Shown here: positions 1,706 to 64,000 of the stretch, piece by piece
How positions within the stretch are numbered: the stretch's first letter is position 1
Layout of the letters: each line of letters starts with the position of its first letter
DNA from: Chiloscyllium plagiosum
Taxonomy: Eukaryota
DNA: 64,000 nucleotides
NCBI RefSeq assembly: GCF_004010195.1
Contig: NC_057749.1
Location: 17,377,778 to 17,441,777 of the forward strand
Direction: 5' to 3'
Notes under the pieces: model-generated
Databases searched by the model: none
What the model saw: the letters and a program-made list of their open reading frames with translations, nothing else
Told to the model about the DNA's origin: nothing
Position numbers and translations under genes: made by a program

Positions 1706-2252
1706 TGTGGATGTCAGTTTGCTTGCTGAGCTGGATGTTTCGCATCATACTAGGTAACATCAGTGAGCCTCCGGTGAAGCACTGGTGTATGGCCCACTTT
1801 TTATTTGTGTTGAGGTTTCCTTGGGTTGGTGATGTCATTTTGTGTTCTTTTTCTCGGGGTGGTAAATGTGATCCAAGTCAATGTGTTTGTTGGTAGATTT
1901 CCAGTTGGAGTGCCATGCTTCTAGGAATTCTTGTCTCTGTTTGGCTTGTTCTAGGATGGATGTGTTGTCCCCAGTTGAAGTGGTTTCCTTTCTCATCTGT
2001 ATGTAAAGGTACTAGTGAGAGTGGGTCATGTCTTTTTGTGTCTTGTTGATGTTGATGTTGATGTTCAAGTATCCTGGTGGCTAGTTTTCTGCCTGTTTGT
2101 CCAATGTAGTGTTTGTTACAGTTCTTGCATGGTATTTTGTAAATGACATTAGTTTTGCTTGTTGTCTGTATAGGGTCTTGCAAGTTCATTCGCTGCTGTT
2201 TTAGTATGTTGGTGGGTTTGTGGGCTACCATGATGCCAAGAAGTCTGAGTGG
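1706..2252 (-). mobile_element. Penelope-like element 3' fragment (GIY-YIG endonuclease plus terminal repeat)
   Basis: ORF 1878..2231: NVIYKIPCKNCNKHYIGQTGRKLATRILEH. Damaged hammerhead at about 1731-1768. Confidence 0.88.
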
Positions 2253-3903
2253 TTCTCTGCATTATACTGGATTATCGATGCTTTGATTTTTCTGTTGCGT
2301 TCTGTATCTCATTCCTCTGTATTTGTTCACTTACTAACACTTACTAATGTACAGCAATGCAAATAACAACAAGAACTCTTGTAATAATGGAGTAATAAAG
2401 TGAGCAGTGATTCACCATACTCAATCCCAGTTTTAATTTTTAGTAGTTATTTAAGCAGCTGCCAGGTGACTATGTCCTGCAGTAGTTTGTGTGGTTCTTT
2501 TTTAGATGTGCAGAATAAATATTGATTGTCTTTGGGATATGTGGTTGCAATTTTAACCTGAAACCATTGAAGAGGAACTTTCATTGCTGGTGACAACTGA
2601 AAACCCAGAAAGTTGTTTTTATTTGTTTTCTTCAGGGCCAGGAGAATCAGTCATGCCACCTTGGCCCTAAATTGTGCTGTTTCCCCAAACCCATGAAGTC
2701 TGTCTGGCCCCTTCTATCTAATTACCTGACCGCCAATACCATTTTCTTTGGTTTGATAAAATACAAACTTTAGGAATATTGAACAAGTATGGCAGAATCT
2801 GTGAAAAAAGAAACAGTTAATGTTCCTGGTCTACGGACTTTCAGTATTCTTTTGGGTTCCTTGTGGCGGCCTCCTGTTGGATAAAATCCCACTCCTATTT
2901 GGCGCCCACCTTGCATTTTCCACTGGATTCAGGAAAAAGACTGAGAGGACTCATGCAGTTAAGTACTGGGGTTTAAAATCACTGCGGCGGGTCAAGAGAT
3001 ACTTTCCATCTGCTATGGCCTCTGTCCAAAAGGCTCTCATAGTGCAAATTGCATTTAATATTTTTCTTTTTACAGCTGATACACTCTTCAGGGTTAGAAT
3101 TGCAAAATTATTCCACTGCAGAAGGGGTTTATTCAGTCCATTGTGTCTGTACAGGCTCTCTGAATGAACATCATGCTTTAGGGTCATTCTCCTGTCTTTT
3201 GCCCTTAACCCTGCACAATATTTATATTTAAATAGTCACCTAATGCCCTCTTGAATGCCTCAATTGAAACACACTTTAAGGCAATAAATTTCGGACCCAA
3301 GCCACTTGCTGTCTGGAAAGGTTTTTATTTTTGTATCACATGTACTCCTTTTACAAATTGCTTCAGATCTGTGCCCTTTCATTCTTAATCCTTTTATGAA
3401 TGGCAACAGTTTTTCTTTGTTTGACCTGTCATGTTTGAAAACTTTAATCAGTTAATTTTGTCTTTCCCCTATTGAAGAAAAACAGTCCCAATTTTTCTAA
3501 TTCACCGTCACAGTTGAAGTTTCTCATCTCTACAGCCTTTCGAATCAACCTCTTCTGCACTCTCTCCTTCCTAAAGTGTGGCACCCAGAATTGTACACAG
3601 TTCATCTGAGATGCAAATAGTGTGTTATGAAGATTCACCACAATCACTCTGCTGTGGTCCTGTGACCCCATTAGTAGACAATTAAGACACTGTACTGTCT
3701 GTATCAAGGGTGCTCTGAGTATATGGTCTCTTAGACTGCTTCTTTTTTGTGACTTTGTCAAAACAGATGACATTTACACTGTGAAATTTGGCGATGATTA
3801 TCATTAGTGTTATTAAAAAAATACAGTGTTTAGTGATACTGACTACTTGCTGACTAAAATGGAATGTGCTTGCTTCATAACACTTACTGTGTTCTTTCAC
3901 TAG

Positions 3904-3943
3904 GAGGAATAAGAACTCCAAAACCAAACTTGTTCTACCAAAG
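3904..3943 (+). CDS. MYO9A: Myosin IXa coding exon, loop-2 insertion of the motor domain (RNKNSKTKLVLPK)
   Basis: tag|G...AAG|gtaaga, 40 nt, phase 2 to 0. The peptide resembles the vertebrate MYO9A loop-2 segment RNKNFKSKPALPK (recalled) and joins in frame to the exon at 9161. Confidence 0.85.
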
Positions 3944-4327
3944 GTAAGAATGTGAATTTTGTTTTTCTATCGCTCTCTGAGAGAGGTGAATTAGCCCTTT
4001 GTCTTCAGGGCAAAATTATATGGTGTGCTACCGAATACTCATTGTGTTTTGTGCAAATGTCTTTGGTTGTAATGTGGTGATTCAAGTGACCTTATATTTT
4101 AAATTGAGCAATATGATGCTTTACTGCAATTTTTCATGTTACTTTTTCCTTTCACTCTTCCTGTCTTTTATGGGTTACAGTGAAGGCACTATCACTCATA
4201 CTGCAACCAAATATTTATTTGTCAACCCATAAAACCACATTTCATTAAGCTAAACTAAAAGCCATTCAACACTCAAATGTGTTCTGTCTTTCAATGATAT
4301 CATAGTTGCTCAGTATCACAGGTATAA

Positions 4328-4860
4328 CAAAACTGGAGATGCTGTAAGTCTGAAACAAATGGTCACAGAAATTGCAAGAGAACCTTCCTTTGTCTAGTAG
4401 CATCTTTGGCGAGAAAACTGAATTCACATTTTTACTCCTGTGACCCTACTTCAGAACTATAAGCAGCTAAGAAAGATAGTTAATTTCACTATGTGGGAGA
4501 AGGAATGAGCAGATAAGTGGATAGGGAGTCCAGAGAGAGAGGCAAAAAGATTGTTGACAATAGGTCAGGGAAAAAGAGAAGCTCAGTAGGCTATAATGGA
4601 GGCTATGAATTGAAAATGGTAGTACTTGGCATAATGGAGGTAGATAAAAGATAAGGAAGCAGTTGGCCATACGCTACAATTGTTAAACTTGTTGTTGAGA
4701 CCTGAAGCCAAAAGGTGCCCATGTAGAAAATGAGGTGGCGTTCTTCTAGTTTGCATTGAACCTTGCTGGAACACTGCAACAGGCCTGAGACAGAAGTGTT
4801 GACATGGAACAAGATAGTGGCAGACAACTGGCAGCTCGGGGTCATTTTTACAGGCAGAAC
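4328..4860 (-). mobile_element. Old Penelope-like (Neptune-type) remnant
   Basis: KLEERHLIF..GT peptide resembles LEEECLIFCHGTLQPHGIN at 62606..62905. Terminal repeat resembles 15665-15800, with a decayed hammerhead at about 4420-4458. Confidence 0.6.
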
Positions 4861-6900: not shown

Positions 6901-7591
6901 TTTATGTGTAGATTTGCTCGCTGAGCTATAAGTTTGATATCCAGACGTTCATTACCTGGCTAGGTAACATTATCAGTGGCGACCTCCAAGTGAAGCGAAG
7001 CTGTTGTCTCCTGCTTTCTATTTATATCTTTCTCCTGGTTGGGGTTCCTGGGTTTTGTGGTGATGTCGTTTCCTGTTCATTTTCTGAGGGGTTGATAGAT
7101 GGCATCTAGATCTGTGTGTTTGTTTATGGCGTTGTGGTTGGAGTGCCAGGCCTCTAGGAATTCTCTGGCATCTCTGCGCAGCCTGACCCAGGATAGATAT
7201 GTTGTCCGAGTCGAAATGGTGGTTTTTTAAATCCGTGTGTAGGGCTACGAGGGAGAGAGGGTCGTGTCTTTTTGTGGCTAGCTGATGGTGTATCCTGGTG
7301 GCTAACTTTCTTCCTGTTTGTCCTACGTAGTCTTTGTGGCAGTCCTTGCATGGAATTTTGTAGGTGACGTTGGTTTTGTCCATGGGTTGTACTGAGTCTT
7401 TTAAGTTTGTTAGTTTTTGTTTGAGAGTGTTGGTGAGTTTGTGTGCTACTAGGATTCCGAGGGGCCTTAGTAGTCTGGCTGTCATTTCTGAAACTTCTTT
7501 GATGTGTGGTAAGGTGGTTAGGGTTTCTGGCTGTGTTTGGTCTGCTTGTCGTGGTTCTTGAGGAATCTGCGCACTGTATTTTTTGAGTATC
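6901..7591 (-). mobile_element. 5'-truncated Penelope-like element inserted into a CR1 3' end
   Basis: ORF 7018..7593 has the GIY-YIG segment YKIPCKDCHKDYVGQTGRKL. 13-bp direct repeat ATTGGTGTTGAGG at 6888-6900 and 7592-7604. Decayed hammerhead at 6941-6979. Confidence 0.9.
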
Positions 7592-7942: not shown

Positions 7943-8152
7943 AGCTGAAAATGTGTTGCTGGAAAAGCGCAGCAGGTCAGGCAGCATCCAAGGAGCAGGA
8001 GAATCGACATTACGAGCATGAGCCCTTCTTCAGGAGCCCTTCATGCCCGAAACGTCGATTCTCCTGCTCCTTGGATGCTGCCTGACCTGCTGTGCTTTTC
8101 CAGCAACACATTTTCAGCTCTGATCTCCAGCATCTGCAGTCCTCACTTTCTC
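7943..8152. mobile_element. Fold-back insertion of two inverted PLE terminal repeats
   Basis: About 7943-8020 is the reverse complement of about 8042-8119. Flanked by CTCTTTACAT(A/G)ACAG at 7930-7944 and 8153-8167. Confidence 0.88.
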
Positions 8153-8766: not shown

Positions 8767-9160
8767 TTCATTTAATGATTCAAATTGTTAGAACTTGCAA
8801 TGTTCTATCAGAGGCAATAGTGGAAGCAGAATCAATAATACCTCGTAAAAGGATAATAAATATGTGTGAAAAATAAGCATTTGACCTTTAATTCTGATGA
8901 AGAGTCAGTGCTGAAAAAAGGTTTAGCCCATCTGCTCTATTCGCAGAGCGTGGACTGCTCTAATTATTTCCAGCATTTCTAATGCTAGCAACTTTCCTTT
9001 TTCCATGTTAGTTGAATAGATATGTAGAATGTATAACTCCTTGTCTGACCTTTCTTATTGTAATTCTTCTCCTTATTTTAATACTTATACAAATGTAAAC
9101 ATTCTGAGCAAAGCTTTTAACTGATGGAATATTGTGACCTTGTTTATCTTGACCTTCTAG

Positions 9161-10140: not shown

Positions 10141-10181
10141 CCAGACGTTTCATCACCCTACTGGATAACATCTTCAGTTGG
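10141..10181 (-). ncRNA. Hammerhead ribozyme motif (core intact, weak stem I)
   Basis: Reverse complement reads ccaa-CUGAAGA-U-GUUAUCC[agua]GGGUGAU-GAAAC-GUC-ugg. Confidence 0.75.
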
Positions 10182-10657: not shown

Positions 10658-10698
10658 CCCACTGAAGATGTTACCTAATAGGATGACGAAACATCTGG
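10658..10698 (+). ncRNA. Hammerhead ribozyme motif (partly decayed)
   Basis: cca-CUGAAGA-U-GUUACCU[aau]AGGAUGAC-GAAAC-AUC-ugg. The stem III palindrome is broken (ACGU to ACAU). Confidence 0.7.
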
Positions 10699-13086: not shown

Positions 13087-13586
13087 NNNNNNNNNNNNNN
13101 NNNNNNNNNNNNNNNNNNNNNNNNNNNNNNNNNNNNNNNNNNNNNNNNNNNNNNNNNNNNNNNNNNNNNNNNNNNNNNNNNNNNNNNNNNNNNNNNNNNN
13201 NNNNNNNNNNNNNNNNNNNNNNNNNNNNNNNNNNNNNNNNNNNNNNNNNNNNNNNNNNNNNNNNNNNNNNNNNNNNNNNNNNNNNNNNNNNNNNNNNNNN
13301 NNNNNNNNNNNNNNNNNNNNNNNNNNNNNNNNNNNNNNNNNNNNNNNNNNNNNNNNNNNNNNNNNNNNNNNNNNNNNNNNNNNNNNNNNNNNNNNNNNNN
13401 NNNNNNNNNNNNNNNNNNNNNNNNNNNNNNNNNNNNNNNNNNNNNNNNNNNNNNNNNNNNNNNNNNNNNNNNNNNNNNNNNNNNNNNNNNNNNNNNNNNN
13501 NNNNNNNNNNNNNNNNNNNNNNNNNNNNNNNNNNNNNNNNNNNNNNNNNNNNNNNNNNNNNNNNNNNNNNNNNNNNNNNNNNNNNN
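13087..13586. other. Assembly gap (500 N)
   Basis: Run of N. Confidence 1.
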
Positions 13587-15620: not shown

Positions 15621-15664
15621 GGAAAGATTTGTTTAAAACTTTCATTTGACCAGTATTCTTGAAT

Positions 15665-15880
15665 ATTAAAAAAAAGAACTGTGGATGCTGGAGATCAGAA
15701 GTAAAAGGCAAAATTGCTGGAGAAATTTAGAAGGCCGAGCACCATCAGTGGCGAGAAAACAGAGCTAACATTTCAAGTCCAGTGACCCTTATTCAGAACC
15801 AGTTCTGATGATATGTCACTAGACCCGAAACATTAACTCTGCTTTCTCTCCACAGATGCTGCCAGACCTGCAGAGTTTCT
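15665..15880. mobile_element. Older fold-back of PLE terminal repeats
   Basis: Imperfect inverted repeat centred at 15800, with a hammerhead motif on each strand. Confidence 0.75.
15763..15838. ncRNA. Divergent pair of decayed hammerhead motifs (minus 15763-15800, plus 15801-15838)
   Basis: Plus: aguu-CUGAUGA-uauGUC[acua]GACcc-GAAAC-AUU-aacu. Minus: gguu-CUGAAUA-aggGUC[acug]GACuu-GAAAU-GUU-agcu. Confidence 0.7.
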
Positions 15881-17036: not shown

Positions 17037-17434
17037 GTAACCGTTAAACAGAGCAAGTTTTGTCTCCTTGTTTGTGTACTCCAGATTTGGATTAGATGTA
17101 TGACCAGCCACCGGTACAGCCTTCAGTTATCTTGTATTTAACATTAAAGGGTTTCTGTTTTGGTTAAAGTGACTGGATAGTTATCATGCCTTACAAAACT
17201 TTATCCCTAACCCCAGTCTGAGGTTAGTTATGACATCTTTGCAAGCTCAGCTGTGGCAGCGTATTCAAAACACATTCCAGAGTTGAATTTGGAATATTCT
17301 AATCTGAATGGGCAATACATTGATCTACTGGGGAGCTTCATTGATTTTAAATTGAATCAGAGCAACTCACATAGATGACTTCTAGAATGTCAAATGCTCA
17401 GAATTTAATTCCCATCTTTCTTTTTTTATTTCAG

Positions 17435-19138
17435 GTTTCAGGCATTGAAAAGGCAGAAACTCAAAGAAGAGAAGAAACAACTGGATAGTGAAAAGATAGA
17501 GACCTTGAACAAACACATCCCAGATGAAAACCTTCCTGAAATCAATAAGCCTTTGCTGAGCAAGTTAGGAGATAAACTAGTTGAGACTTGCACTTCAAAA
17601 GAAAATGACAGTCAGCAAATCCATTCTGAATGTAGTAATAATTCAGTAGATTTGCAGGTTGGAACTTCTAACTTTTCTAATATTGCCAATGTGCCACAGG
17701 GTGTGATTGTCAGGGAGAGACCAAAGTCCTTTTCTGGAGATCCAGACAAGCAGAAAGTGGTGCGTGCCAAAAGACATAGTCGGAGAATGCGAGAGTTGGA
17801 ACAAGCCAAGTTTAGCCTTGAATTGCTGAAGGTGCGATCAGGCGGTGTGTCTCCCTCAGAGGAGGGACGCTGGTCCACTGAACTGGTATCTGATGGTGTG
17901 AATTCCCTATCTCCTCAGGGAACACCGGACAGCGAGAGCTCAAGAGGTAGTTTTGAAGTACCTAGCTGTGAAGATGAACTGAAGGGAAAACAGTCTTTAA
18001 CTGTTTCTGATGAGCCATTCTCTGATTCCAGCCTGCATACTACTCAGGATTATCTGTCAACAAGTCCCAAATCAAATAATCACAGTCTGTCCACTAATCC
18101 AACACTTCATGGAACAAATCTGCTTTCCAGTCTTTACACGAACACTAATTATTCTAGTCTTGACTCCAAAATTCCAGAAACAGACAATAAAGAGTTCCAT
18201 CTTCAAAGATCAAATTCTGAAGATCGATCTCCTAGTCCTAAATCAAGTGACAGTCAGTTTTCAAGTTCTAAATTGGACTGTCGTCCATCTACTCAATTAC
18301 AAAATCATGATAATATATCCAGTAGCTCGAAGCCAAATGAGACTATCTTTGCACATTCTGACCACTTTACGATTGAAGGCACTATTGCTGTACCCAAAAC
18401 AGATGAAGAAGGTGATCAGTCACTTGATGGTGAATTTTCAAAAGATGAACAGCCTTGTTTAGCAGACAATACAGGCATTAACCCCTTTCCTCAAATTGCA
18501 ATTCTTGAAAGACTTGAGCGATTAAATGTACAGCAGGCAGAGAGACAAAAGCAGAAACGGCAGCAGAATGAGAAGGAAATGATGGAACAGATAAGGCAGC
18601 AAACAGAAATCCTGGAGAAGCAACGCAAAGTTTTTGAAAAACAAGAGAAGGACATGTTTGAGAGGCAGCGAGGGGAAGCGCTGCAGAAAATAGAACAGTG
18701 CAGACAGAATGATATTGCTCCCATTCCTTTCAGACCTCCAAGTGAACAAACGGGTAGACCTCAGACCTGTCTTGCTTTGCGCTCAGACAAAAAATGGGAT
18801 TCAAATATCAATTCAGATTCTCAATCAATATCATCCAATGAGTCTAAAATGTTAAACACTGCAGAAGTTTTTGATAATTACAATACCACAAGCTGCCCTG
18901 GAATAAAAGATCGACCTATCAGTATGTTTTTTGATAAGAAGGATCTGCAACCAAGTGGCCTACAGGAAATCGATAAGCTAGATGGGTGGACACCAAAACT
19001 CAGTTTGGAGTCCCGTGAATCTGGTACAGAGCAACCCCGACCACCCAAACAGACAGGACCAGGGGCTGCAAACACAGGGGAAGATGACAGGACCAATGTC
19101 TTGTTTTTTATGCCCAAAGACAAGAACACACTAAGCAA
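17435..19138 (+). CDS. MYO9A: Myosin IXa long tail exon (1704 nt; coiled-coil and Ser-rich segments)
   Basis: ttcag|G TTT...AA|gtaggt, phase 2 to 2, inside ORF 17445..19142. Contains MYO9A-type blocks RRMRELEQAKFSLELLKVRS and QQNEKEMMEQIRQQTEILEK. Confidence 0.94.
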
Positions 19139-22100
19139 GTAGGTTATTTTCCTTGAAATTTTTTTTTCAGGTGTCCACTTTAACAGCTGTGTAAACTTAT
19201 TGGTGATTTAGTACACATTCAATGGAATGATAGGGTACTAGTTTTGTCACTATTGTTAGTTTGACTGTGGGGCAAAGCTATCCAAGAGGGTCATGAAAAA
19301 ACTTGCAAATGTTAATGAACAGGCCATCTATGCTTCTGTTGATCAAAAGCTGGTGTACAGAATGAAGTGAACACAGGTGTAACAAAATTCATTTACAAAC
19401 TAGTCAAGACAGTGTAGTGTACAAAGTAGAGATGTTCTTTAAAGGTAATGGCTCTCTAATGATCTGTTAAGACTATAACAACTTTACCTTTTCATTAATT
19501 GGCAGTCTGATATTCAAGTTGCTTTGTTCTCTTTTTAACAATATTGAAAAATGTACATGAAATGCCTAGCTAGATTCATAATGGAGGACAAAACCAAGGT
19601 TGTGTAAAGATTTTGATAACTTTCCTTTTTGAATGTGTCTTTATATTTTATTAGAAGGTGAAATATTTGTGAAAGGAAAAGTGTGAAAAAGGCCACCAGG
19701 CTCTTACTATCCAGTTGACTGTGCAGTCCTGTACACTGGTCCTTCTAGGGGAAGTAAATAACTTATTATAAATATAACTTGATGTAGATCAAGCAATTAA
19801 ATCTGTTAACTATCAACTTTAATTGAAATCAGTGTCTTGGAGACTCTTAGATGTGAGCCCACAAAATTGTTTCTAATCTTAATTAATTTTCAGTTTCACC
19901 TAGGAATGAGAATATTCAGGAAACAACGAGTACAGGTTATTGTCTCAGGGTGAAGCTTTGTGACATTGTTGAAAAGAGTTTTGTATTTGTTTATATTACA
20001 CCAGATCTGAGTGAGTTTAATGTAATGGAAACTTTTAAGTTTATCCGCTGTCTTCCGACGTTCTAGTTGCTTATACATTTTCTTTCCTTTTAGTGCCATG
20101 GTCTTCGAAACTGTATATGACCTCCATGAGCCTTAATTCATTCTCGATCTGATCTATCATTGATTTGGGAGTGTATATATATCAGTAGAAACAGTTTTAT
20201 TTGGTCGTGTATCTGAAGTGGAAACCGTCACCACTCTCTGCGACTTGTACAAAGTATTCCTCTAATAGGACAACTAAGAAAAAAAGATTAAATGAGAAAT
20301 ATAAAATTGGGCCGTAAAAGCTTCTATAGGTATGTAAAAAGAAAAGACTAGCAAAAACTAATCTGGATCCGTTCCAAGAAGAGAATATATAATAGAGAAT
20401 AAAGAAATGACAGAGAAACCAAATAAATAGTGTCTGTCTTCATGGAGGAAAATACGAAAACCTTTCAGAAATAGAACATAGAACAGTACAGCACAGTACA
20501 GGACTTACCCCTTCAATGTTGTGCCGACTTTTTATCCTACTCTAAGATCAGACTAACTTATCTACCATGTGCCTGTCCAAGAGTCGCTTAAATGTCCCTA
20601 ATGTATCTGCTGGCAGTGCATTCCACACACACACCGCTCTCTGTGTAAAGAACCTACCTCTGACATCTCCCCTAAATCTTCCTCCAATCACCTTAAAACC
20701 ACAGTGATAGACATTTCCACCCTCGAAAAAAAGTCTTTGGCTATCCACTCTATCTATGCCTCTCATCATCCTGTACAACTCTATCAAGTCATCTCTCATC
20801 CTCCTTTGCTCGAATGAGAAAAGCCCTAGCTCCCTCAAGCTTTCTTCATAAGACATGCCCTCCAGTCCAGGCAGCATCCTGGTAAATCTCCCCTGCACCC
20901 TCTCTAAAGCTTCTCTATTCTTCCTAATAATGAGGTGACCAGAACACAATATTCCAAGTGTGGTCTAACCAGGGCTCCATGGAGCTGCAGCCTAACCTTG
21001 CTATTTTTAAACTCAATCCCCCTGCTAATGAAAGCCAACACAACATGTGCTTTCTTAACAACCCTAACAATCTGGGTAGCAACATTGAGAGATCTATGGA
21101 CATGGACCCCAGGATCCCTCTGTTCCTCCACACTGCCAAGACTCTTTAACTCTGTATTCTGCATTCAAATTCAACCTTCCAAAGTTGCACTTTTCCAGGT
21201 TGAACTCCATTTGCCACTTATCAGTCCAATTCTGCAATCTGCCGATGTATTGTTGCAACCTACAACAGTCCTCCACGCTATCTACCACTCCACTGACCTT
21301 TGTGTCATCAGCAAACTTACTAACCCACCCATCCACTTCCTTATCCAAATCATTTATAAAAATCTCAGAGCAGAGGTGCCAGAACTGATCCCTGTGCAAC
21401 ACCACTGGTCACCAAGCTGAAGGCTGAATACTTTTCATCCACTACCGCCATCTCTGTTCTCTGGGCCAGCCAATTCTGTAGCCAGGCAGCCTCACTTTCT
21501 GTATGAGCCTACCATGGGGAACCTTATTAAATGCCTTGCTAAAATCCATGTACACCACATCCACTTCTCTACATTCAAAGTTTGTGAGAAGATTTGTAGC
21601 TCGGGTGCTCGTTGCTGTGGTTCTGTTCGCCGAGCTGGAAGTTTTTGTTGGAATATCCGTTTTTTGCTAAGGTACACTAAGGTACACAGGAAAGCCACAC
21701 ACACAGACCAAGTCCTGAACTATGAAAGCAACCACCCCAATACACACAAACGAAGTTGCATCAAGACACTGTTCAAAAGGGCCACAACACACTGCAGCAC
21801 ACCAGAAGTGCAAAAAGAGGAAGAGGAACACCTATACAAGGTATTCGCAAAAAACGGATATCCTCGCAATTTCATCAACAGATGCCTAAGGGAAAGACAA
21901 CAGAACGAGGACATGCCGCAACCCAAAGGACTAGCCACACTACCACACATCAAGAACATCTCTGAAATGACAACCAGACTACTGCGACCACTAGGACTCA
22001 TAACAGCACACAAACCAACAGCCACTCTCAGACAACAACTCACCAAAACGAAGGACCCGATACCCAGCATGAGCAAAACTAAGGTAGTGTACAAAATCCC

Positions 22101-22169
22101 ATGCAAGGACTGCACAAAACACTATATAGGACAAACAGGAACACAGCTAACGATCTGCATCCATGAACA

Positions 22170-22469
22170 NNNNNNNNNNNNNNNNNNNNNNNNNNNNNNN
22201 NNNNNNNNNNNNNNNNNNNNNNNNNNNNNNNNNNNNNNNNNNNNNNNNNNNNNNNNNNNNNNNNNNNNNNNNNNNNNNNNNNNNNNNNNNNNNNNNNNNN
22301 NNNNNNNNNNNNNNNNNNNNNNNNNNNNNNNNNNNNNNNNNNNNNNNNNNNNNNNNNNNNNNNNNNNNNNNNNNNNNNNNNNNNNNNNNNNNNNNNNNNN
22401 NNNNNNNNNNNNNNNNNNNNNNNNNNNNNNNNNNNNNNNNNNNNNNNNNNNNNNNNNNNNNNNNNNNNN
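22170..22469. other. Assembly gap (300 N) inside the Penelope element
   Basis: Run of N. Confidence 1.
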
Positions 22470-22691
22470 GGGACAACGCTACCATTATAGGGCAAGCGAA
22501 ACAAAGAACAGCCAGGGAATTCCTAGAAGCTTGGCACTCATCCACAAACTCCATCAACAAACACGTAGACCTGGACCCAATATACCGACCACTACAGCGG
22601 ACAGCTGAAACTGACACCCGGAAGCGGCAGGGACAGGCCACTATAAATGCCGGAGGAAACACCACAGGAGCGCTTCACAGGAGGCTCCCAA

Positions 22692-22731
22692 GCACTGAGG
22701 ATGTCACCTAGACAGGGGACGAAACGTTTGC
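22692..22731 (+). ncRNA. Minimal type-I hammerhead ribozyme motif (intact core) in a Penelope terminal repeat
   Basis: gca-CUGAGGA-U-GUCACCU[agac]AGGGGAC-GAAAC-GUU-ugc. Stem I gca/ugc, stem II 6 of 7 bp, palindromic AAACGUUU stem III, predicted cut after 22728. Confidence 0.85.
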
Positions 22732-25700
22732 AACAAAAACTTCCAGCTCGGCGAACAGAACCACAGCAACTTCTCTACATGTTTCGTTACATTCTCAAAG
22801 AATTCAATAAAGTTTGGGAGGCATGACCTGCCCCTCACAAAGCCATGATGGCCATCTCTAATCAAGCTATGGTTTTCCAAGTAATCATAAATCCTGTCTC
22901 TCAGAAACCTCTCCAATACTTCACCCACCACAGACGTGAGATTGACTGGTCTATAATTCCCAGGATTATCCCTACTCCCTTTCTTGAACAAGGGAATAAT
23001 GTTTGCCACCCTCCAATCATCTGGCACTACTCCAGTGGACAGTGAGGATGCAAAGATCATCTCCAAAGGTGCAGCAATCTCTTCCCTTGCTTCCTGTAGT
23101 AATCTATATCCTGTCTGGCCCAGGGGTTTTATCTATCCTCATGAATTTCAAAATTTTCAGCACAATTTCCTCCTCAACATCAAACTTATTCGAGCATATC
23201 AGTCTGTTTCACACTGTCCTCAGAAATGTCAAGGTCCCTCTCAGTAGTGCATACTGAAGCAAAGTATTCATTAAGGACCTCCCCTACACACACTGACTTC
23301 AGGCGCAAGTTCCCTCCACTATTCCTGATCAGTTCTACTCTCACTCTGGCCATCCTCTTGTTCCTCACCGAAGTGTAGAACGCCTTAGGGCTATAGTCAT
23401 AGAGATGTACAGCATGGAAACAGACCCTTCGGTCCAACCTGTCCATGTCGACTAGATATCACAACCCAATCTAGCCCCACCTGCCAGCACCCGGCCCATA
23501 TGCCTCCAAAACCTTCCTATTCATATACCCATCCAGGTGCCTTTTAAATGTTGCAGTTATACCAGCCGCCAACACTTCCTCTGGCAGTTCGTTCCATACA
23601 CATACCACCCTCTGTATGAAAAAGTTATCCCTCAGGTCTTTTTTACATCCTTCCCCTCTCACCCTAAACCTGTGCCCTCTAGTTCTGGACTCCCCCACCC
23701 CAGGCAAAAGACTTTGTCTATTTATCCTATTTATGCCCCTCATGATTTTATAAACAGCTATAAAGTCACCCCTCAGCCTCGGACATTCCAGGGAAAACAG
23801 TCCCAGCCTGTTCAGCCTCTCCCTATACCTCAAATCCTCCAACCCTGGCAACATCCTTGTAAATCTCTTCTAAATCCTTTCAAGTTTCATAACATCTTTC
23901 CGATAAGAAGGAGACCAGAATTGCATGCAATATTCCAACAGTGGCCTAACCAATGACCTGTACACTTGCAACATGACCTCTCAACTCCTGTACTCAGTAC
24001 TCTGACCAGTAAAGGAAAGCATACCAAACGCCGCCTTCACTATCCTATCTACCTGTGACACCACTTTCAAGAAGCTATGAACCTACACTCCAAGGTCTCT
24101 TTGTTCAGCAACACTCCCTAGGACCATGCCCCCTTCTAGCTCTCCTAAGTTCATTCTTCATTTCCTTCCTGGCTACCCTGTAACCCTCTAGACCCCTATC
24201 TGATCCTTGCCTCCTCAACCTTGAGTAAGCTTCCTCGTTCTTCTTGACTAGATGTTCCATATCCCTGGTCACTCAAGGCTCTTTCACCCTACCATCCCTT
24301 ATGTTTCCTTCCCTCAGTAGGACAAATCTGTCCAACACTATCAGCAATTGCTCCCTTAAAAAACCTCTACATTTCTGCCGTGCTTTCCCTGAGAACATCT
24401 GTTCTCAATTTAGGTGCCCCAATTCCTGCCTAATAGTATCATAATTCCTCCTTGCCCAATTAAATCTATAACAGGGTATTTGGAAAAATAATAGTAAGAT
24501 TAGGTAGCATTAGCTTGCATTTATGAAAGAGAAATCATGTTTGACCAACCTATTGGAGTCTTTTGAGACTATAACTATCAGAATAGATGACGGGGAACAG
24601 GTGGATGTGATATCATTACATTTTCAGAAAACTTCTGGTAAAGGTCTACGTAAGAGGTTAGTAAACAAAATTAGAGCATATGACTTAAGGGGAATTTATC
24701 GGCATAAATTGAGAACTGGTTAATGAACAGAAAACTGAGAAGGAATAAATGGGTCACGTTCAGATACTAGGATTGTATAGTACCGAAAGAATTAGTGCTT
24801 GGGCCCCAGCTATTCGCAATCGATAACAGTGATTTATTTGTGTGTAGGGACTAAATGTAATATTTTCAAGTTTGCAGTTAGCGAAAAATAACTGGGTGGA
24901 AGTAACTATTATTGATAATTGACAGATTTAATTCTTGATCCACATCAAGTAAAAATTATAGTAAATTACTTACTTGCCTTAGAAAGACTGGTGCACAGGA
25001 CTGCACAGTCAAATGGTTAGGAGTTATGAAGATGATACAAAAATGCTTCCAGGGAATTTGGAGAGGTTAAGTGTGTGAGCAAAAAATTGTCCATTCCAAA
25101 ATTTGAATTACAACATGCAAATGTTTGAGGTTATCCACGTTGGTAGAAAAATGGAAGTACTGAATATTTCTAAAATGGTAAGACCATAAGAAATAAGAAC
25201 AGCGGGGATGGGAATTGTTGAACTTCACAGGGATTTGGGTATCCTTGTTCTTGAATCATTGAAAGTTAGCAGTTAGGTATTAAGGCAAGAAGTATTTTGG
25301 CCTTTAGTTCAGATGGATTTGAGTATAGGAATAAAGATGACTTATAGAGGGCCTTGGTGAGACTGAATTTGGACTATTGTTTGCAGTTTTGCTCTCCTTA
25401 TGAATAAGTATACTTGCCATAGAGGCAATGCAATAAACTCCTGTCAATCTAATTCCTGGGGTGAGGGGATGTCCTTCAAGGAAATGTGAAATAGACTTAC
25501 ACCTATATTCTCTGGAGGTTAAAAGAATGAGGGCTGCTCTTATACAAACAAGATTCTTATGCAATTGATAGGATTGATACAAGGTTGATGGGGAATCTAA
25601 GACCAGAGGGCTCAGTCTCAAAATCAGGGTGCAATGAGGAAGAAGTTCTTCACTTAAGTAATAAATTGTTAGGGTTATGTACCTCAGATCGCCTTGGAAG

Positions 25701-40050: not shown

Positions 40051-40074
40051 ATAGCGTAGCATATTGCAGCTTGT

Positions 40075-40129
40075 GCAACATAATGTTCTAAGAAGCGCAA
40101 CATAATGTTCTAAGAAGCAAAACATAATG
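40075..40129 (+). repeat. 22-bp tandem duplication (about 2.5 copies)
   Basis: GCAACATAATGTTCTAAGAAGC twice, plus a partial third copy. Confidence 0.9.
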
Positions 40130-41264: not shown

Positions 41265-43255
41265 TTCTTTTATGCATCACTGTGTTGTGGCTGGCCAGCA
41301 TATTTACTATCCATCCCTAATTGCCTTTGAGAAAGTGATAATGAGCTGCCTTCTGAACTGCTGCGACCCATGTGCTTTAGGTAGACCCATAATGCCCCTG
41401 AGGAAGGAATTCCAGGATTTTGACCCAACAACAGTGAAGAATGGGATATATTTCCAAGTCAGGGTGGTGAATGGCTTGAGGGAAACTTGCAGGTGGTGAT
41501 GTTCTTGTGCATCTGCTGCCTTGTACTTCTAGTTGGAAGTGGTAATGAGCTTGAAAGGTGCTGCCTAAGCTCTTGTTACATTCAGTATCTGCAAATGGTA
41601 ATGAACATTGTGCAATCATTGGCGAACGTACCCACTTCTGACTTTATGGTAGAGGGAAGACTATGTATGAAGCAGCTGAAGATGCTTGGGCCTCGAGTCC
41701 TACCCTTAGGAACTCATACGGAGGTGTCTTGGGACTGAAATGACTAATCTCCAACAGCCACAGCCATCTTGCTATGTGTCAGCAGAGAGTTTGGCATTTC
41801 AGACAGAAGATTGCTGTGAATGCTTTTGCCTTTGCATTGATGTGCTGGGTTCTTGCATCATTGAATCCTATTTGGTATTTTCAACAGGTTGATGCCTCAT
41901 TTTTAGGTATGCTGTGTATTGCTCCTGGCATGCCCTCTTGCACATTCCTTTGGTCCCCTGGTTTGATGGTAATGGTTGAGTGGGGGATATGCTGGGCCAT
42001 GAGGTTGCAGATAGTGTTGGAGTACCACTCTGCTGCTGATGGCCCACAATGCCTTACAATGCCCAGTCTTGAGTGGCTAAATCTGTCTCTCCCAGTTATC
42101 GTGGTAATAGTGCCACACAACATGGTGGAGAGTATTCTCATTGTGAAGGTGGGACTTCATTGCCACAAGGATGTGCAGTGGTCACTCTTACTAATGTTGT
42201 CATGGTGAAGACGAGGTCAAGCATGCCTTTCTTTCTTGTTGGTTCTCTCATCACGTGCCAAGGATCCAGTCCAGCAGCTTTGTGCTTTAGGATCCAACCA
42301 GTTACATGAGTAATGCTGCCCCCCCCCCCCCCAGCCACTCTTGTTGGTGCACATTAAAATTCCCCGCCCAGAATATATTTTGCATCATTGTCAGACTTGC
42401 CACGCTCAGTGCTTCCTCCACGTGTTATTCAACATGGAAGAGCATTGATTCATCAGATGAGAAAGGACAGTACATGGTGATCAGGAAGTTTCCTTGCCCA
42501 TGTTTAACCTGATGCCATGCCATGAGATGTCATGGTGTCTTGAGTCATATTTGAGGAGTTCCATGGCAACTCCCTCCCGGTTATATCCCACTGCTGGGTC
42601 TGTCCTGCCTGTGGGATTGGCTATATTGAGGGATGATGATGGTGATGTTTGGAACATTGTCTGTAAGGTATGATGCCATGAATATGACATTATCAGGCTG
42701 TTGCTTTACTAGCCTGTGCGATACCTGTCCCAATTTTGACACTAGCCCCTATAAAATTTTTAAAGAGGACTTTGCAGGGGCAACAGGGCTGTTTTTCAAT
42801 TATCATTTCCAGTTTCTAGGTTGATGCCAGGTGGTCCATCCAGTTTCATTTCTTTGTTGAAATTTTGTAGCAATTGATACAACTGAGTGACTTGTTGGAC
42901 CATTTCAGACAGTTGAGAGTCAACTATCTTGCTGTGGCTTTGGAGTTGCATGTAGGGGTAGATCAGGTGAGGAAGGTAGATTTCCTCTTGCTCCTCGGAT
43001 TCTGTCTAATCTGCTGTGTTTTTTCCAACGACGTGCTTTATCAACTGAGTTTCCACCATGTGCAGTTCTTACTTTCTCCTAGATTTCCTTCCCTGAAGGG
43101 CATTAGTGAACCAGATGGATCTTCTAACAATCAACAATAGTTTCATCGTCATTAGAGGATTCTTCATTCCAGACTCTCTTTTATAATGGTGGGATTTGAA
43201 GACAGGTCCCCAGTGAGTTTCTGGTTTAATTGTCCAGTGATATTACCACCAGGCC
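41265..43255 (-). mobile_element. Internally deleted CR1-group LINE (non-classical CR1; L2/Crack/Daphne-like) with tRNA-like 5' head
   Basis: AP-endonuclease remnant REPTRKKGMLDLVFT (42138..42338), collinear with 46680-52905. Head at about 43187-43255. A small PLE repeat is inserted at 42987-43079 with TAGATTTCCT duplicated. Confidence 0.75.
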
Positions 43256-44917: not shown

Positions 44918-45009
44918 ATTAGAGTGGTGCTGGAAAAGTACAGCAGGTCAGGCGGCATCCGAGGAGCAGGAAAATCGACGTTTTGGGCAAAAGCCCTTCA
45001 TCAGGAATG
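44918..45009 (-). mobile_element. 92-bp solo PLE terminal repeat
   Basis: Perfect 14-bp direct repeat CCTTCCAGTGCTAG at 44904-44917 and 45010-45023; same family as 62523-62640. Confidence 0.9.
44971..45008 (-). ncRNA. Hammerhead ribozyme motif (G12 to A, likely inactive)
   Basis: Reverse complement reads auuc-CUGAUGA-A-GGGC[uuuu]GCCC-AAAAC-GUC-gauu. Confidence 0.7.
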
Positions 45010-45990: not shown

Positions 45991-46025
45991 CGCTAGCTTT
46001 CGGAGCACTGCTCTTTCTTCAGGTG
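45991..46025 (-). ncRNA. Hammerhead ribozyme motif (core intact, stem mismatches)
   Basis: Reverse complement reads cac-CUGAAGA-A-AGAGC[agu]GCUCC-GAAAG-CUA-gcg. Same family as 31441-31475. Confidence 0.75.
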
Positions 46026-46271: not shown

Positions 46272-46306
46272 GACAGGCTTTCAGAGCGCTGCTCCTTCAT
46301 CAGGTG
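46272..46306 (-). ncRNA. Hammerhead ribozyme motif (cleavage triplet mutated)
   Basis: Reverse complement reads cac-CUGAUGA-A-GGAGC[agc]GCUCU-GAAAG-CCU-guc. Confidence 0.7.
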
Positions 46307-49600: not shown

Positions 49601-50407
49601 GTGACCTGATCAGGTGTACCCTAGAACTCTGTGGTAAGCTAGGGAAGTGATTGCTGCAACCCTTGCTGAGATATTTGTATTATTGATAGTCACAGGTGAG
49701 GTGCCGGAAGACTGGAGATTGGCTAATGTGGTCCGACTATTTAAGAAAGGTGGTAAGGACAAACCAGGGAACTATAGACCAATGAGCTTGATGATGGTGA
49801 TGGGCAATTTGTTGGTGGGAATCTTGAGGGACAGAATTTACATGTATTTGGAAAGGCAAGGATTGATTAGGGATAGTCAACATGTCTTCATGCGTGGGAA
49901 ATCATGTCTCACTAACTTGATTGAGTTTTTTGAAGAAGTAATGAAGAGGATTGATGAGGGCAGAGCGGTGAATGTAATCTATATGGACTTCAATAAGGCA
50001 TTCGACAAGGTTCCCCATGGGAGACTGATTAGCAAGGTTCGATCTCATGGAGTACAGGGAGAACTATCCATTTGTATACAGAACTGGCTCGAAGGTAGAA
50101 GACAGGGGGTGGTGGTGGAGGGTTGTTTTTCAGACTGGAGGCTTGTGACTAGTGGAGTGCCACAAGGATTGGTGCTGGGTTCACTACTTTTCATCATTTA
50201 TATAAATGATTTGGATGTGAACATATGAGCTATAGTTAATACGTTTACAAATGACACCAAAATTAGAGGTGTAGTGGACAGTGAAGAAGGTTACCTCAGA
50301 GTACAATGGCACCTGGATCAGATGGGCCAATGGGCTGAGGAATGGCAGATGGAATTTAATTTAGATAAATGCGAGGTGTTATACAGGACTTATACACTTA
50401 ATAGAAA

Positions 50408-51042
50408 GGTGAAAGTGAGGACTGCAGATGCTGGAGATCAAAGGTTTGGTGCTGGAAAAGCACAGCAGGTCAGGCAGCATCCGAGGAGCAGGAGAATCAA
50501 TGTTTCGGGCAAAGGCCCTTCATCAGGAATGAGGCTGGGAGCCTCCGGGGTGGAGAGATAAATGGGAGGGGCTAGGGGAAAGGTAGCTGAGAGTGCTCTG
50601 GGGAGGGGGAGTTGGGGTGTTTAGCCACTGAGCGGTGGGGTTAGTTGTTGTGGGTGTCCCGGAAATGTTCTCTAAAATGCTTTGCAAGTAGGCATCCTGT
50701 CACCCCAATGTTGAGGAGACCGCATCGGGAGCAACGGATACAGTAAATGACCCGTGGCCGAGTTCTTCGGCTCTCCGTCCCACTGTGCCAGGGGCATGCA
50801 GGTCCTGGGCTGCCTCCATCACCGCTCCCTGGCTGCCTTGGGGCGCTCCAGCCCTGCAGCGTTGGTGTGGGTTTCGCTGGTTTCCTCATTTCCCCTCCCC
50901 ACCCACCCACCCCCCCCCACCTTGTCCCAGTTCCGACTTGGCACCATCTTCACGGCGTGTCCTGCCTGTCCGTCTTCCTTCACCCTCCTGTCTGACCTGT
51001 CACTGTTGCCCCCAACTCCCATCTGACTATCGCACTCTCAGC
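50408..51042 (-). mobile_element. Rearranged Neptune-type PLE fragment inserted in CR1
   Basis: VIYCIRCSRCGLLNIGVTG GIY-YIG remnant. The part from about 50760 to 51040 is inverted relative to the rest. ACACTTAAT repeated at 50394 and 51043. Confidence 0.82.
50494..50530 (-). ncRNA. Hammerhead ribozyme motif (stem III decayed)
   Basis: Reverse complement reads auuc-CUGAUGA-A-GGGC[cuuu]GCCC-GAAAC-AUU-gauuc. Confidence 0.72.
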
Positions 51043-54140: not shown

Positions 54141-54354
54141 AGGTAAAAACAATGACTGCAGATGCTGGAAACCAGATTCTGGATTAGTGGTGCTGGAAGA
54201 GCACAGCAGTTCAGGCAGCATCCAAGGAGCAGCGAAATCGATGTTTCGAGCAAAAGCCCTATTCCTGATGAAGGGCTTTTGCCCAAAACATCGATTTCGA
54301 AGATCCTTGGATGCTGCCTGAACTGCTGTGCTCTTCCAGCACCACTAATCCAGA
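54141..54354. mobile_element. Fold-back insertion of two inverted PLE terminal repeats
   Basis: 54177-54260 is the reverse complement of 54272-54354. 14-bp direct repeat CAGAAATAGAAAAG at 54127-54140 and 54351-54364. Confidence 0.9.
54261..54297 (+). ncRNA. Hammerhead ribozyme motif (decayed)
   Basis: auuc-CUGAUGA-A-GGGC[uuuu]GCCC-AAAAC-AUC-gauu. Confidence 0.68.
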
Positions 54355-61930: not shown

Positions 61931-62207
61931 GGTTTCATAATACCCTCACAGCTAGGTGAAGCAGCTTTACCTGTTGGCTTTTGCCTTGAGAACGTTTAAA
62001 TATTTATTGTATCCAGTTTTATTTGTATGAATCCATGTGGACTAATGGGGTAAATATCTTATCGATTGTGGTGATTACAATATTACAACACTTGTGCATT
62101 TAAATCAAGCTGGTCAACTGAATTGCATCTTTCAAAATTAACTTCAGATAAAAATGTCTTTGCATATGTTGTGTTGTATGTTAGGCTACTTTTCACCTCT
62201 CTTTCAG

Positions 62208-62269
62208 TATGTAGGTATGCTTGCCATAGAAAGTGCTGCTTGAAAACTACGATCAAATGCTCCAAAAAG
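62208..62269 (+). CDS. MYO9A: Myosin IXa C1 zinc-finger exon 2 (LCRYACHRKCCLKTTIKCSKK)
   Basis: ttcag|TA TGT...AAG|gtaagt, 62 nt, phase 1 to 0. Completes C-x2-C-x4-H-x2-C-x7-C. Confidence 0.96.
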
Positions 62270-62522
62270 GTAAGTTGTCTTGAATTAGCAGAGCTTCAAA
62301 TTCTTTTTGAGCAATGCTCTGAGAGTGGCAGCTTTGCAGTTTTAAGCCATTCTTGTTTTTCAGACTTTACAAGACAATGTTCACTGAAACATGAGTGAAT
62401 CAGATGAGTTTTTTTTGACAATTGACAATGGATTCAGGGTCATGATTATATTCTTAATTCTAGATTTTTATTAAATTCGAATACCACCATTTGTTGAAAT
62501 TAGTTGAGACAGTTTTGATTCA

Positions 62523-64000
62523 GGGAGAAAGTGCGCACTGCAGATGTTGAGAGTGTGGTGCTAGAAAAGCACAGTCGATCAGGCAGCATCCGAGGAGCAG
62601 GAGAATCAGCGTTTCAAGCATAAGCCCTTCATCAAGAATGGGGCTTGTGGGCCAAGGAGGCTGTGAGATAAATGGGGGGGGGGGGGGGGGTCCAAGTTGG
62701 AAGGTTGGATCTGGAATGAGGTGGAAGGAGGGGATATGAGGAAACTGGTGAAATCCACATTGATGCCATGTGGTTGGAGGGTCCCATGGCAGAAGATGAG
62801 GCATTCTTCCTCTAGGCATTGGGTGGTAAAGGTTTGGTGGTGGAGGCGGCCCAGGACCTGAATGTCCTTGGGGGAGTGGGAGAGGGAGTAAAAGTGTACA
62901 CCCACAGGCGGTGCGGTTGTTTGCTACATGTGTCCTGGAGGTGTTCTCTGAAGCGTTCCTCAAGTACCTGTCCTGCCTCAAAAATGTAGAGGAGACCACA
63001 TTGCGAGCAATGGATACAGTAAATGACGTGTGGAAGTGCAGGTAAATCTCTGACAGATGTGGAAGGCTCCTTTGGGACCTCGGATGGAGGTAAGGGGAAG
63101 GTGCTGGGTGGGGGGGTGTTGGTGAAGGGCGTGGACCTGACGAGAGTCACGAAGGGAATGGCCTTTACGGAACGTGGATAGGGGTGGGGAGGGAAATATA
63201 TTCCTGGCAATGGGGTCTGTCTGTAGGTGGCGGAAATGCCGGAGGATGATGCGATGCATCTGGAGGTTGGTGGAGTGGAAGGTGAGGACCAGGGGAGTGC
63301 TCTCCTTGTTGCAGCTGGAGGGTGGAGTTTAAGGGCGGAGGTGCAGGAAGTGGAGGAGATGTACTGGAGGGCATCGTCGGCCATGTGGGAGGGGAAATTG
63401 CGGTCTTTGAAGAAGGAGATTATCTGGTCTGTTCGTTGGTGGAATTGGTCCTCCTGGGAGCAGGTGCAGTGGAGGCAGTTGAATTGGGAATAAGGGGGTA
63501 GTGTTTTGACAGGAGGCATGGTGGGAGGAGGTGTAGTCCAGGTAGCTCTGGGAATCGATGGGTTTGTAGTAGATGTCCGTGTTGAGTTGGTCACCATTAA
63601 TGGAGATGGAGAGGTCCAGGAAGGGGAGGGAGGTTTCAGAGATGGTCTAGGTGAACTTATGATCGGGGTGGAATGTGCTGGTGAAGTTGATGAACTGTTC
63701 CAATGTCCTCGTGGTGCTGATACAGTCATCGATGTAGCAGAGGAAAAGTTGGAGAATGGCGCCGGTGTAGCTGCGGAAGATGGACTGTTCCATGTACCTG
63801 ACGAAGAGATAGGCATAGCTGGGGTACATGCTACCCCGGTGATCTGGATGAAGTGGGAGGATTCAAAGGAGAAATTACTGTGGGTGAGGACCAGTTCAGC
63901 CAAACTAACAAGAGTGTCAGTGGAAGGGTACTGGTGGGGATGATGGGGGAAGAAGGAATGGAGGGCTTGGAGGCCTTCATCATGACAGATAGATGTGAAT
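62523..64000 (-). mobile_element. Neptune-type Penelope-like element (frameshifted RT plus GIY-YIG), running off the window
   Basis: AELVLTHSNFSF...ITGVA, PSYAYLFV...FLCYIDDCI (RT catalytic motif), VIYCIHCSQCGLLYI.E..ERFREH and LIFCHGTLQPHGIN. Terminal repeat with decayed hammerhead at about 62603-62640. Confidence 0.9.

Follow-up and report, generated by a model that had tools for sequence, protein, structure and literature searches.

Hammerhead ribozyme motifs of the kind carried by Penelope-like elements (PLEs) are scattered through the introns of MYO9A in the shark Chiloscyllium plagiosum. The window considered here is a stretch of 64,000 nucleotides from contig NC_057749.1, in which a reading made from the letters alone had listed about 20 such motifs from four repeat families. 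All 20 listed sites align as homologous copies of four families (A, B, C and D) with a hammerhead-like core. That the motifs are true PLE-type hammerhead modules can be held with high confidence; the fuller account, in which the copies are minimal type-I hammerhead modules that were spread as element tails by target-primed reverse transcription and have mostly decayed, is very probable. They are new members of the minimal hammerhead (min-HHR) kind known since 2014, and are notable mainly by their number. Two points are of most value: the load of these motifs in the genome, and the possible coupling of ribozyme and poly(A) signal in family D.

The sites are named by the coordinates first given to them (e.g., 10141), and the motif coordinates start slightly inside these (10144-10177). 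Every listed coordinate was read and then aligned in motif sense with the members of its own group. A copy was defined as fully intact if it kept both core boxes, the extra base, helix II, a palindromic ANNU and a non-G base at H17. Four of the 20 copies do so: 10144-10177(-), 22695-22728(+), 35027-35060(-) and 31444-31472(-). Another five, at 10658(+), 34568(-), 50494(-), 15801(+) and 45991(-), retain both core boxes with a decayed palindrome or pair 10.1-11.1, bringing to nine the copies that keep both catalytic boxes (CUGANGA and GAAA, in type-I order). Ten sites carry at least one substitution or deletion at a core position (1731, 6941, 8001, 44971, 54261, 62603, 4420, 8891, 15763 and 46272), and site 8041 consists of the 3′ half only (GCCC-GAAACGUC) because an inverted copy abuts there. 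The reported recurrence of the hammerhead core is confirmed, although about half of the 20 copies are mutated relics. CpG decay accounts for many of the changes (ACGU to ACAU, CCCG to CCTG). The copies are given below with the evidence for each; E values are those of a covariance model.

1734-1763, minus strand: family A hammerhead, decayed by a 3-base deletion in the CUGANGA box; a GIY-YIG frame lies just upstream (E=7.9)
4423-4454, minus strand: badly decayed family C hammerhead, recognizable by alignment to the core and tail of that family; no match to the covariance model
6944-6976, minus strand: family A hammerhead, decayed (G8 to A, one A gone from GAAA), helix II a perfect 7 bp (E=1.8)
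8006-8033, minus strand: decayed family B hammerhead, the left of two head-to-head arms, the other being 8045 (alignment; E=0.081)
8045-8056, plus strand: family B half motif (3′ strand of helix II and GAAACGUC) followed by the family tail; right arm of the 8006 pair (alignment)
8894-8923, plus strand: family C-like hammerhead, decayed (alignment; E=0.53)
10144-10177, minus strand: family A hammerhead, fully intact (7-bp helix II, GAAACGUC); head-to-head partner of 10662 (descriptor; E=6.7e-4)
10662-10695, plus strand: family A hammerhead that keeps its core boxes, with ACAU in place of the palindrome (descriptor; E=6.8e-4)
15767-15796, minus strand: decayed family C hammerhead (G8 to U), the left of two head-to-head arms, the other being 15805 (alignment; E=0.083)
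15805-15834, plus strand: family C hammerhead in which the core boxes survive but helix II and the palindrome have decayed; right arm of the 15767 pair (E=0.19)
22695-22728, plus strand: family A hammerhead, fully intact (GAAACGUU); the sole intact copy in the sense of the host gene (descriptor; E=1.9e-4)
31444-31472, minus strand: family D hammerhead, fully intact (helix II GGAGC/GCUCC, GAAAGCUA); the element starts about 8 nt 5′ of CUGAUGA (descriptor; E=4.8e-5)
34570-34603, minus strand: family A hammerhead, core boxes intact, palindrome decayed (descriptor; E=1.4e-4)
35027-35060, minus strand: family A hammerhead, fully intact (GAAACGUC) (descriptor; E=1.8e-4)
44977-45004, minus strand: family B hammerhead, G12 to A (alignment; E=1.7e-4)
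45994-46022, minus strand: family D hammerhead, core boxes intact, G10.1 to A (alignment; E=7.6e-4)
46275-46303, minus strand: family D hammerhead, U16.1 to C (alignment; E=1.4e-3)
50499-50526, minus strand: family B hammerhead, core boxes intact, palindrome decayed (descriptor; E=8.2e-6)
54240-54292, both strands: family B head-to-head pair, a partial copy at 54240-54260(-) and a copy with G12 to A at 54265-54292(+) (alignment, covariance model)
62608-62635, minus strand: family B hammerhead, decayed (C3 to U and others) (alignment; E=0.32)

The consensus forms of the families were taken from the lists of pattern matches in the genome, in which the intact form of every family is abundant.

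Family A: CUGA(A/G/U)GA, U, an 18-nt helix II region, GAAACGU(C/U); helix II up to 7 bp; predicted cut triplet GUC or GUU
Family B: CUGA(U/A)GA, A, GGGC, 4-nt loop, GCCC, GAAACGUC; helix II 4 bp; predicted cut triplet GUC
Family C: CUGANGA, A, GGGUC, 4-nt loop, GACC(C/U), GAAACGUU; helix II 5 bp; predicted cut triplet GUU
Family D: CUGA(U/C)GA, A, GGAGC, 3-nt loop, GCUCC, GAAAGCUA; helix II 5 bp; predicted cut triplet CUA

The family C stem had been read as GUC/GAC; it is a paired stem, but really GGGUC/GACCC. Families B and C have a common tail (GAUGCUGCC.GACCUGCUG and onward). In the genome match lists the abundant variants differ at N7 and loop II, positions where hammerheads tolerate variation. 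A fifth family (E) lies outside the window, at L035:2773-2800(-), with helix II AGCA/UGCU, an A-U first pair and GAAAGCUU; two further entries of it occur among the generic AGCU-type matches listed.

Four hallmarks of min-HHRs that were not imposed are all present: covarying families, base 9/10.1, the pair G10.1-C11.1 and a palindromic 15.2-16.2. An unpaired base stands between A9 and 10.1 in 39/39 distinct intact motifs from the window and 90 loci, being U in family A and A in families B, C, D and E. Among 19 aligned motifs, pair 10.1-11.1 is G-C in 15, G-U in three and A-U in one; A15.1-U16.1 is present in all 19; and positions 15.2-16.2 are complementary and palindromic in 17 (CG 12, GC 5), the remaining two being CpG-decayed. 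The helix III hairpin is absent and a 4-base palindrome, ACGU or AGCU (including A15.1 and U16.1), takes its place. Helix I differs in sequence from family to family yet is complementary next to the core. It is CAC/GUG in family D, where each of the three positions pairs in 25/30 loci and pairing then stops, and AGUU/AACU (4 bp) in family C. Family B has 2 bp, a U-U mismatch at the third pair and then 1 bp, and family A has 3 bp, which read CCA/UGG in one subfamily and GCA/UGC in the other, a two-sided change. The extra base, G10.1-C11.1, the palindrome and the short helix I bear out the earlier assignment of the motifs to the PLE-type minimal type-I class.

Covariation was assessed on a MAFFT alignment of the 19 motifs from five families, with the structure named as helix II plus the palindrome. 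Standard pairs fill 95.8% of 118 cells vs 69.4% in shuffles (0/500 shuffles as high), and sliding the 3′ partner by 1-3 columns leaves at most 52.6% of cells paired. The covariation score is 0.566 vs 0.159 in shuffles, again with 0/500 as high. Four of the five helix II pairs change on both sides, so the stem covariation between families that had been proposed is confirmed. Pairs 4 and 5 and the palindrome were not required by the descriptor that picked the motifs.

This descriptor, which requires CUGANGA, then no or one extra base, a helix II of three or more pairs, and GAAA, was run on both strands of the window and gave 11 matches, against a mean of 1.06 and a maximum of 5 in 200 dinucleotide-preserving shuffles. 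Short loops (≤12 bases) are found in eight matches vs 0.37 expected from shuffles, and the palindrome together with a non-G H17 in four vs 0.08. Because repeat copies are not independent, the fair count is one of families rather than copies: four within the window and a fifth elsewhere in the genome. The covariance model, built from 19 motifs and searched unfiltered over the window, returned 41 matches at E≤10, of which 11 were at E<0.002. Five of these 11 are training rows; the six that are not (50499, 31444, 44977, 54265, 45994 and 46275) still had family relatives among the training loci. Scores are weak for 8006, 15767, 15805, 62608 and 8894 and at noise level for 6944 and 1734, and site 4420 had no match at E≤10. 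The search with hammerhead models that the sequence-only reading had proposed was divided in outcome: Rfam models score no copy, while the covariance model and the descriptor both recover the motifs.

It is extremely improbable that the matches are chance look-alikes of a short, loose motif. Descriptor matches 14687, 57595 and 59634 belong to no family, have long loops and resemble chance background, and the unlisted covariance-model match 27650 (E=0.25), with no proper helix and no family, was taken as chance; such matches come to about the chance expectation, and the silence of the Rfam hammerhead models also speaks for this explanation. For all 20 listed sites, however, the controls refute it. 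The excess of short-loop matches is joined by the outcome of the reversed-pattern controls (family patterns, 5,552-21,180 matches vs 0-1; generic patterns, 223,142 vs 3,067), by the covariation, and by a constant position beside PLE reading frames.

The genome-wide counts come from the 3.56 Gb assembly, in which the window lies on contig 40, with the reversed pattern as control.

Family D, exact form: 16,625 matches, control 0
Family B, exact form: 21,180 matches, control 0
Family C, pattern: 5,552 matches, control 1
Family D, tail 30-mer: 32,790 matches, control 0
Generic ACGU type (CUGANGA, 9-30 bases, GAAACGUH): 169,715 matches, control 2,607
Generic AGCU type (CUGANGA, 9-30 bases, GAAAGCUH): 53,427 matches, control 460

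Summed, the generic patterns amount to about one match per 16 kb, or ~62 intact cores per Mb; the total of 223,142 is an estimate of intact cores, because these patterns ignore pairing and overlapping starts may count twice. The very high genomic load that had been suspected is upheld. Its stated density of one motif per 3 kb holds only when relics are counted, intact cores being spaced at about one per 16 kb. Published counts are ~4,000 in coelacanth and ~9,000 in Xenopus tropicalis (PMC4209133). For axolotl, 126,247 motifs have been counted (PMC7229834), in a genome given as 28.21 Gb (10.64898/2026.07.22.740005). By these counts the shark genome, one-eighth the size, holds the larger number (~62 vs ~4.5 per Mb), a rough comparison in that the shark pattern is looser and counts across species rest on differing descriptors. 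With over 200,000 intact-core copies, divided among five or more covarying families, the genome offers a natural mutational series on the features of the minimal motif; Rfam-based annotation pipelines will miss all of these copies.

Metazoan PLEs carry min-HHRs in their terminal repeats, a kind described in 2014, with Xena, Poseidon, Neptune and Cercyon as named examples (Cervera and De la Pena, PMC4209133). The PLE copies in that study are mostly single and truncated, with opposite-strand pairs 100-700 bp apart. The shark motifs are alike in their core boxes, in the unpaired base 9/10.1, in G10.1-C11.1 and, for family A, in a long helix II. They also share a short helix I, the palindromic 15.2-16.2 without a helix III hairpin, several covarying consensus families per genome, for families A and B a position beside an RT/GIY-YIG frame, and mostly single truncated copies with opposite-strand pairs. 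They differ in a helix I of 2-4 bp vs 4-5 in the published motifs (with 2 bp in Drosophila virilis; PMC4209133), in a helix II of 4-5 bp in families B to D vs 7-8, in the used poly(A) signal that follows the motif in family D, and in number (223,142 pattern matches vs ~9,000 and ~4,000, with different descriptors). The main text of PMC4209133 names no cartilaginous fish. In the literature searched, no account of hammerheads in cartilaginous fishes was found except a 2026 preprint by Li, Clavereau and Pollet, which reports tandem retrozymes and PLEs in the single chondrichthyan species that it sampled (10.64898/2026.07.22.740005).

Other hammerhead systems are more distant. Non-LTR retrozymes are non-coding hammerhead repeats thought to ride PLE machinery (Cervera and De la Pena 2020, PMC7229834; 10.64898/2026.07.22.740005), and family D is likewise extremely abundant and non-coding for at least ~530 nt upstream. 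A retrozyme is a head-to-tail array whose units of 150-450 bp bear canonical type-I motifs, and it gives circular RNAs, whereas shark D copies are dispersed singles or head-to-head pairs; the preprint also reports that retrozymes are excluded from introns, whereas the shark copies are intronic. A non-LTR retrozyme in the strict tandem sense is ruled out, as the window holds no same-family tandem and D is single or in inverted pairs. Rfam Hammerhead_1 (RF00163) has the same catalytic core and type-I topology, with helix I open; the shark motifs differ in lacking a helix III hairpin and in carrying an extra base. Another example is the Sm-alpha repeat of Schistosoma, a type-I hammerhead on a short, dispersed, non-autonomous and very abundant retroelement (PMC6155905). 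The same source describes its motif as canonical and fast-cutting, with loop-loop tertiary contacts, whereas the shark motifs are minimal and have no recognizable loop I.

The link to Penelope rests on reading frames that lie beside the motifs.

1881-2261, minus strand: remnant of a Penelope-like GIY-YIG endonuclease frame lying upstream of 1734 (match to Pfam PF01541 at E=1.8e-5; 25.4 bits against a cut-off of 22.6)
6963-7551, minus strand: P0001-like frame beside the 6944 motif (tblastn)
21628-22167, plus strand: remains of a Penelope-like frame (P0001-like, 77% identity), interrupted by an assembly gap and lying upstream of 22695 (tblastn; N run 22170-22469)
35047-35931, minus strand: P0001, an open 295-aa Penelope-like frame with a GIY-YIG motif that runs into the 35060 motif (homologue domains PF00078, RVT_1 and GIY-YIG)
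50632-50757, minus strand: P0002-like GIY-YIG segment upstream of the 50499 motif (tblastn)
62815-63999, minus strand: P0002, an open 395-aa Penelope-like frame lying upstream of 62608 (alignable with P0001 over the GIY-YIG stretch; homologues PF00078, PF28514, PF26215)

A Pfam search of 15 window frames gave two matches, one of them the GIY-YIG at 1881-2261(-); a search of nine frames at E≤1 gave nothing relevant, and P0001 and P0002 themselves had no Pfam match. The longer homologues of P0001 carry PF00078 and one scans as RVT_1 plus GIY-YIG, which is the domain architecture of Penelope-like elements. Remnants of one reading frame lie directly upstream of family A motifs. The GIY-YIG stretch of P0002 can be aligned to that of P0001 (E=0.003), and the precomputed Pfam set of its homologues is the same as for those of P0001. 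A P0002-like frame lies upstream on the same strand in 7/30 family B loci and at both long B copies of the window. These upstream frames mark families A and B as the 3′ untranslated tails of two Penelope-like lineages with an RT/GIY-YIG frame. The label "Penelope-type", given earlier to the first group of sites, was apt for family A, which lies 3′ of a GIY-YIG frame, but it left unmentioned that the GGGC family (B) is also Penelope-linked. Family D is non-coding for at least ~530 nt upstream in its longest copies and is probably a non-autonomous rider on PLE machinery. The longest D copies (L002, L005, L022 and L023; oriented 900-1100) begin with a CA-rich low-complexity stretch, continue for ~450 non-coding nt and then reach the ribozyme motif.

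The module lies ~90-120 nt from the element 3′ end, at a position fixed in each family, and no full element with two terminal repeats was seen among the window copies and loci. Truncation at the 5′ side is variable: D loci end at many points, with a cluster ~8 nt before CUGAUGA that includes three window copies. Head-to-head inverted pairs, joined at or near the motif, occur three times in the window (8006/8045, 15767/15805 and 54240/54265). Among the first 100 D-tail matches listed, 30 stand in minus-then-plus pairs within 1.3 kb, 20 of them at 72-129 nt, and one same-strand pair is present. An apparent tandem at 34603/35060, 457 nt apart, joins two subfamilies only ~66% alike and is not a terminal-repeat pair. 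The head-to-head junctions are no more than a few bases away from the motif's 5′ edge, and the pairs form long perfect hairpins with weak Rfam matches to mir-722 (33.2 bits) and MIR6146 (25.8 bits). The mir-722-like score, from hairpin 54240-54292, is far below the gathering score of 81, and annotation will miscall such pairs as microRNA-like hairpins.

RNA evidence comes from the single-cell poly(A) runs X19 and X20, which carry the same species label and were aligned over 22470-42469; X1 and X15 are contigs and uninformative on RNA ends. Among runs recorded as RNA, none contained this stretch. No reads of X20 aligned on this interval. In X19 the depth over the D region 31141-31807 is 171 with the first mate plus vs 44 minus, and over the family A element at 34476-35809 it is 35-40 vs ~7 on the other strand; D and A are therefore transcribed mainly in element sense. 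Past the point at which the D copy is truncated, the reads carry on with sequence that longer D copies have upstream, as shown by the loose ends behind 31475 and 31480. The tail of this copy contains used poly(A) sites:

31412-31432, minus strand: family D tail, with an AUUAAA hexamer at 31427-31432 and used poly(A) sites at ~31412-31415 (run X19)

Poly-T loose ends number 426 reads before 31412 and 339 before 31415 (765 in total), which places poly(A) addition 29-31 nt past the predicted cut site and 12-15 nt past AUUAAA, before a GU-rich run. A hexamer lies 9-11 nt past the predicted cut site in 22/30 D loci (AUUAAA in 17 and AAUAAA, a subfamily, in five). None of the 30 D loci has an A-run in the DNA at this position; the poly(A) tails are thus added to the RNA. 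No poly(A) signal is visible in the aligned tails of A, B and C.

The proposed mechanism starts from a module with two catalytic boxes, one unpaired base, a helix II of 4-7 bp closed by G10.1-C11.1 and a palindrome instead of helix III; a non-G base precedes the predicted cut site and helix I is 2-4 bp. Target-primed reverse transcription probably spread the copies, leaving them 5′-truncated to varying extents and often joined head to head as inverted pairs. Insertion was probably followed by neutral decay, so most window copies are dead. In active source copies, two motifs may pair through the palindrome into helix III, as is inferred from PMC4209133 and PMC7229834, and the literature suggests that the paired motifs would cut after H17 and so process the element RNA. 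For amphibian motifs, dimer activity is reported (PMC7229834). The case for dimeric self-cleavage as a working function in vivo is evenly balanced.

Several results weigh against the hammerhead account or against a strong cutting role. Metazoan minimal motifs have low activity in vitro, even as dimers (PMC4209133). The X19 reads cross the ribozyme motifs of both D and A uncut, and no molecule ends pile up at the predicted cut sites in this poly(A)-primed library, which captures cut products poorly. Tandem motifs of one family on one strand are absent from the window. Helix I is only 2-4 bp, and in family B its third pair is U-U in 29/30 loci. Families C and D show no consistent coding partner: a same-strand upstream PLE match by tblastn was found in only 2/30 family C and 1/30 family D loci, and a GIY-YIG motif upstream in 0/30 D loci. 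The covariation comprises few independent events, because the changes fall between about five lineages, and pairs 1-3 are partly paired by selection, because the descriptor already demands three pairs. No copy scored with the Rfam hammerhead families over the window, either at gathering level or at E≤10; the 34-bit gathering threshold of RF00163 was reached by none, and 81- and 91-base stretches holding intact copies gave nothing at E≤10. A genome scan with RF00163 likewise found nothing among the 73 of 409,411 candidates scored; its controls gave no signal either, and it is uninformative. Minimum-free-energy folds of five copies, as monomers and homodimers, showed helix II in three (10177, 31472 and 50526) and helix I and the palindrome helix in none, though such folding is uninformative for a motif so small.

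Some of these results would suit a structured 3′ signal that does not cut RNA, such as a site that the reverse transcriptase recognizes or uses for priming or, in D, a transcription-end cassette with a poly(A) signal. The fixed distance of the module from the 3′ end in each family, the very short helix I, the uncut reads and the low activity in vitro are all in its favor, and in D so are the AUUAAA/AAUAAA hexamer and the poly(A) site used ~30 nt past the cut site. Such a signal is nevertheless unlikely, and the same small weight falls on the corollary that the hammerhead likeness is ancestral baggage or a protein-binding form. Five families keep the unpaired catalytic bases, G10.1-C11.1 and a non-G 17 while N7, loop II and the helices drift, a pattern of conservation that a plain protein-binding hairpin would not require. 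Furthermore, the poly(A) signal occurs in D only. Fungal, plant and protist PLEs carry more canonical hammerheads, and the assayed PLE motif of Serpula lacrymans cleaved as a single motif (PMC4209133). A different view holds that the window copies are plain dead repeats without present activity, which inform on the history of the genome and say nothing on the MYO9A locus. This is probable, and it does not conflict with the reading as decayed PLE-type modules. Of the 20 listed copies, 16 lack a core base or the palindrome or are reduced to half of the motif, with many of the changes due to CpG decay; the density of intact cores in the window equals the genome mean; and 11/13 unpaired copies are antisense to the host gene. 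Poly(A) RNA does contain sense transcripts from families A and D, however, and tens of thousands of copies keep CpG-containing cores intact, so some lineages were active recently.

A bolder combination of claims is decidedly doubtful: that this is the densest hammerhead load yet counted in any genome, and that D couples its ribozyme to a working poly(A) signal ~30 nt downstream, with cutting stripping the poly(A) tail and leaving a defined 3′ end. If the D ribozyme cuts, such stripping would explain the genomic copies without an A-tail. In that case, transcripts of host genes could end prematurely at any of thousands of intronic sense copies of D. Family D makes the link between ribozyme and used poly(A) site directly testable.

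The host gene had been named as MYO9A, and an exon of it supports this:

17409-19139, plus strand: MYO9A exon, a 577-aa frame with 94% identity to the Hemiscyllium ocellatum protein unconventional myosin-IXAa (query coverage 99%)

A Protein Atlas search with this exon gave weak, wrong leads only. MYO9A is not singled out: with four intact copies in 64 kb, equal to the genome mean of one per ~16 kb, the hammerhead load of the window is typical of the genome. Among 13 hammerhead copies outside inverted pairs, 11 are antisense to MYO9A and two are sense (22695 and 8894); all three family D copies of the window, which bear the poly(A) signal, are antisense. Antisense orientation is usual for intronic retroelements. 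The window contains two assembly gaps, 13087-13586 and the N run 22170-22469.

Other repeats adjoin the hammerhead copies. An RVT_1 frame at 49638-50225(+) (Pfam E=4.2e-18) lies on the opposite strand to the adjoining family B copy and belongs to another retroelement. A tRNA-like 3′ arm at 31991-32117(-) matches the T-arm of the tmRNA model (E=2.4e-4, below gathering). It is part of a ~330-nt repeat also found in loci L007, L016, L023 and L029, which is probably a tRNA-derived SINE unrelated to the hammerheads. Between 30000 and 36000 of the window, 6-13% of sampled words occur in contig sets labelled as three other organisms; these are presumably shared repeats, a hint that the families predate this species.

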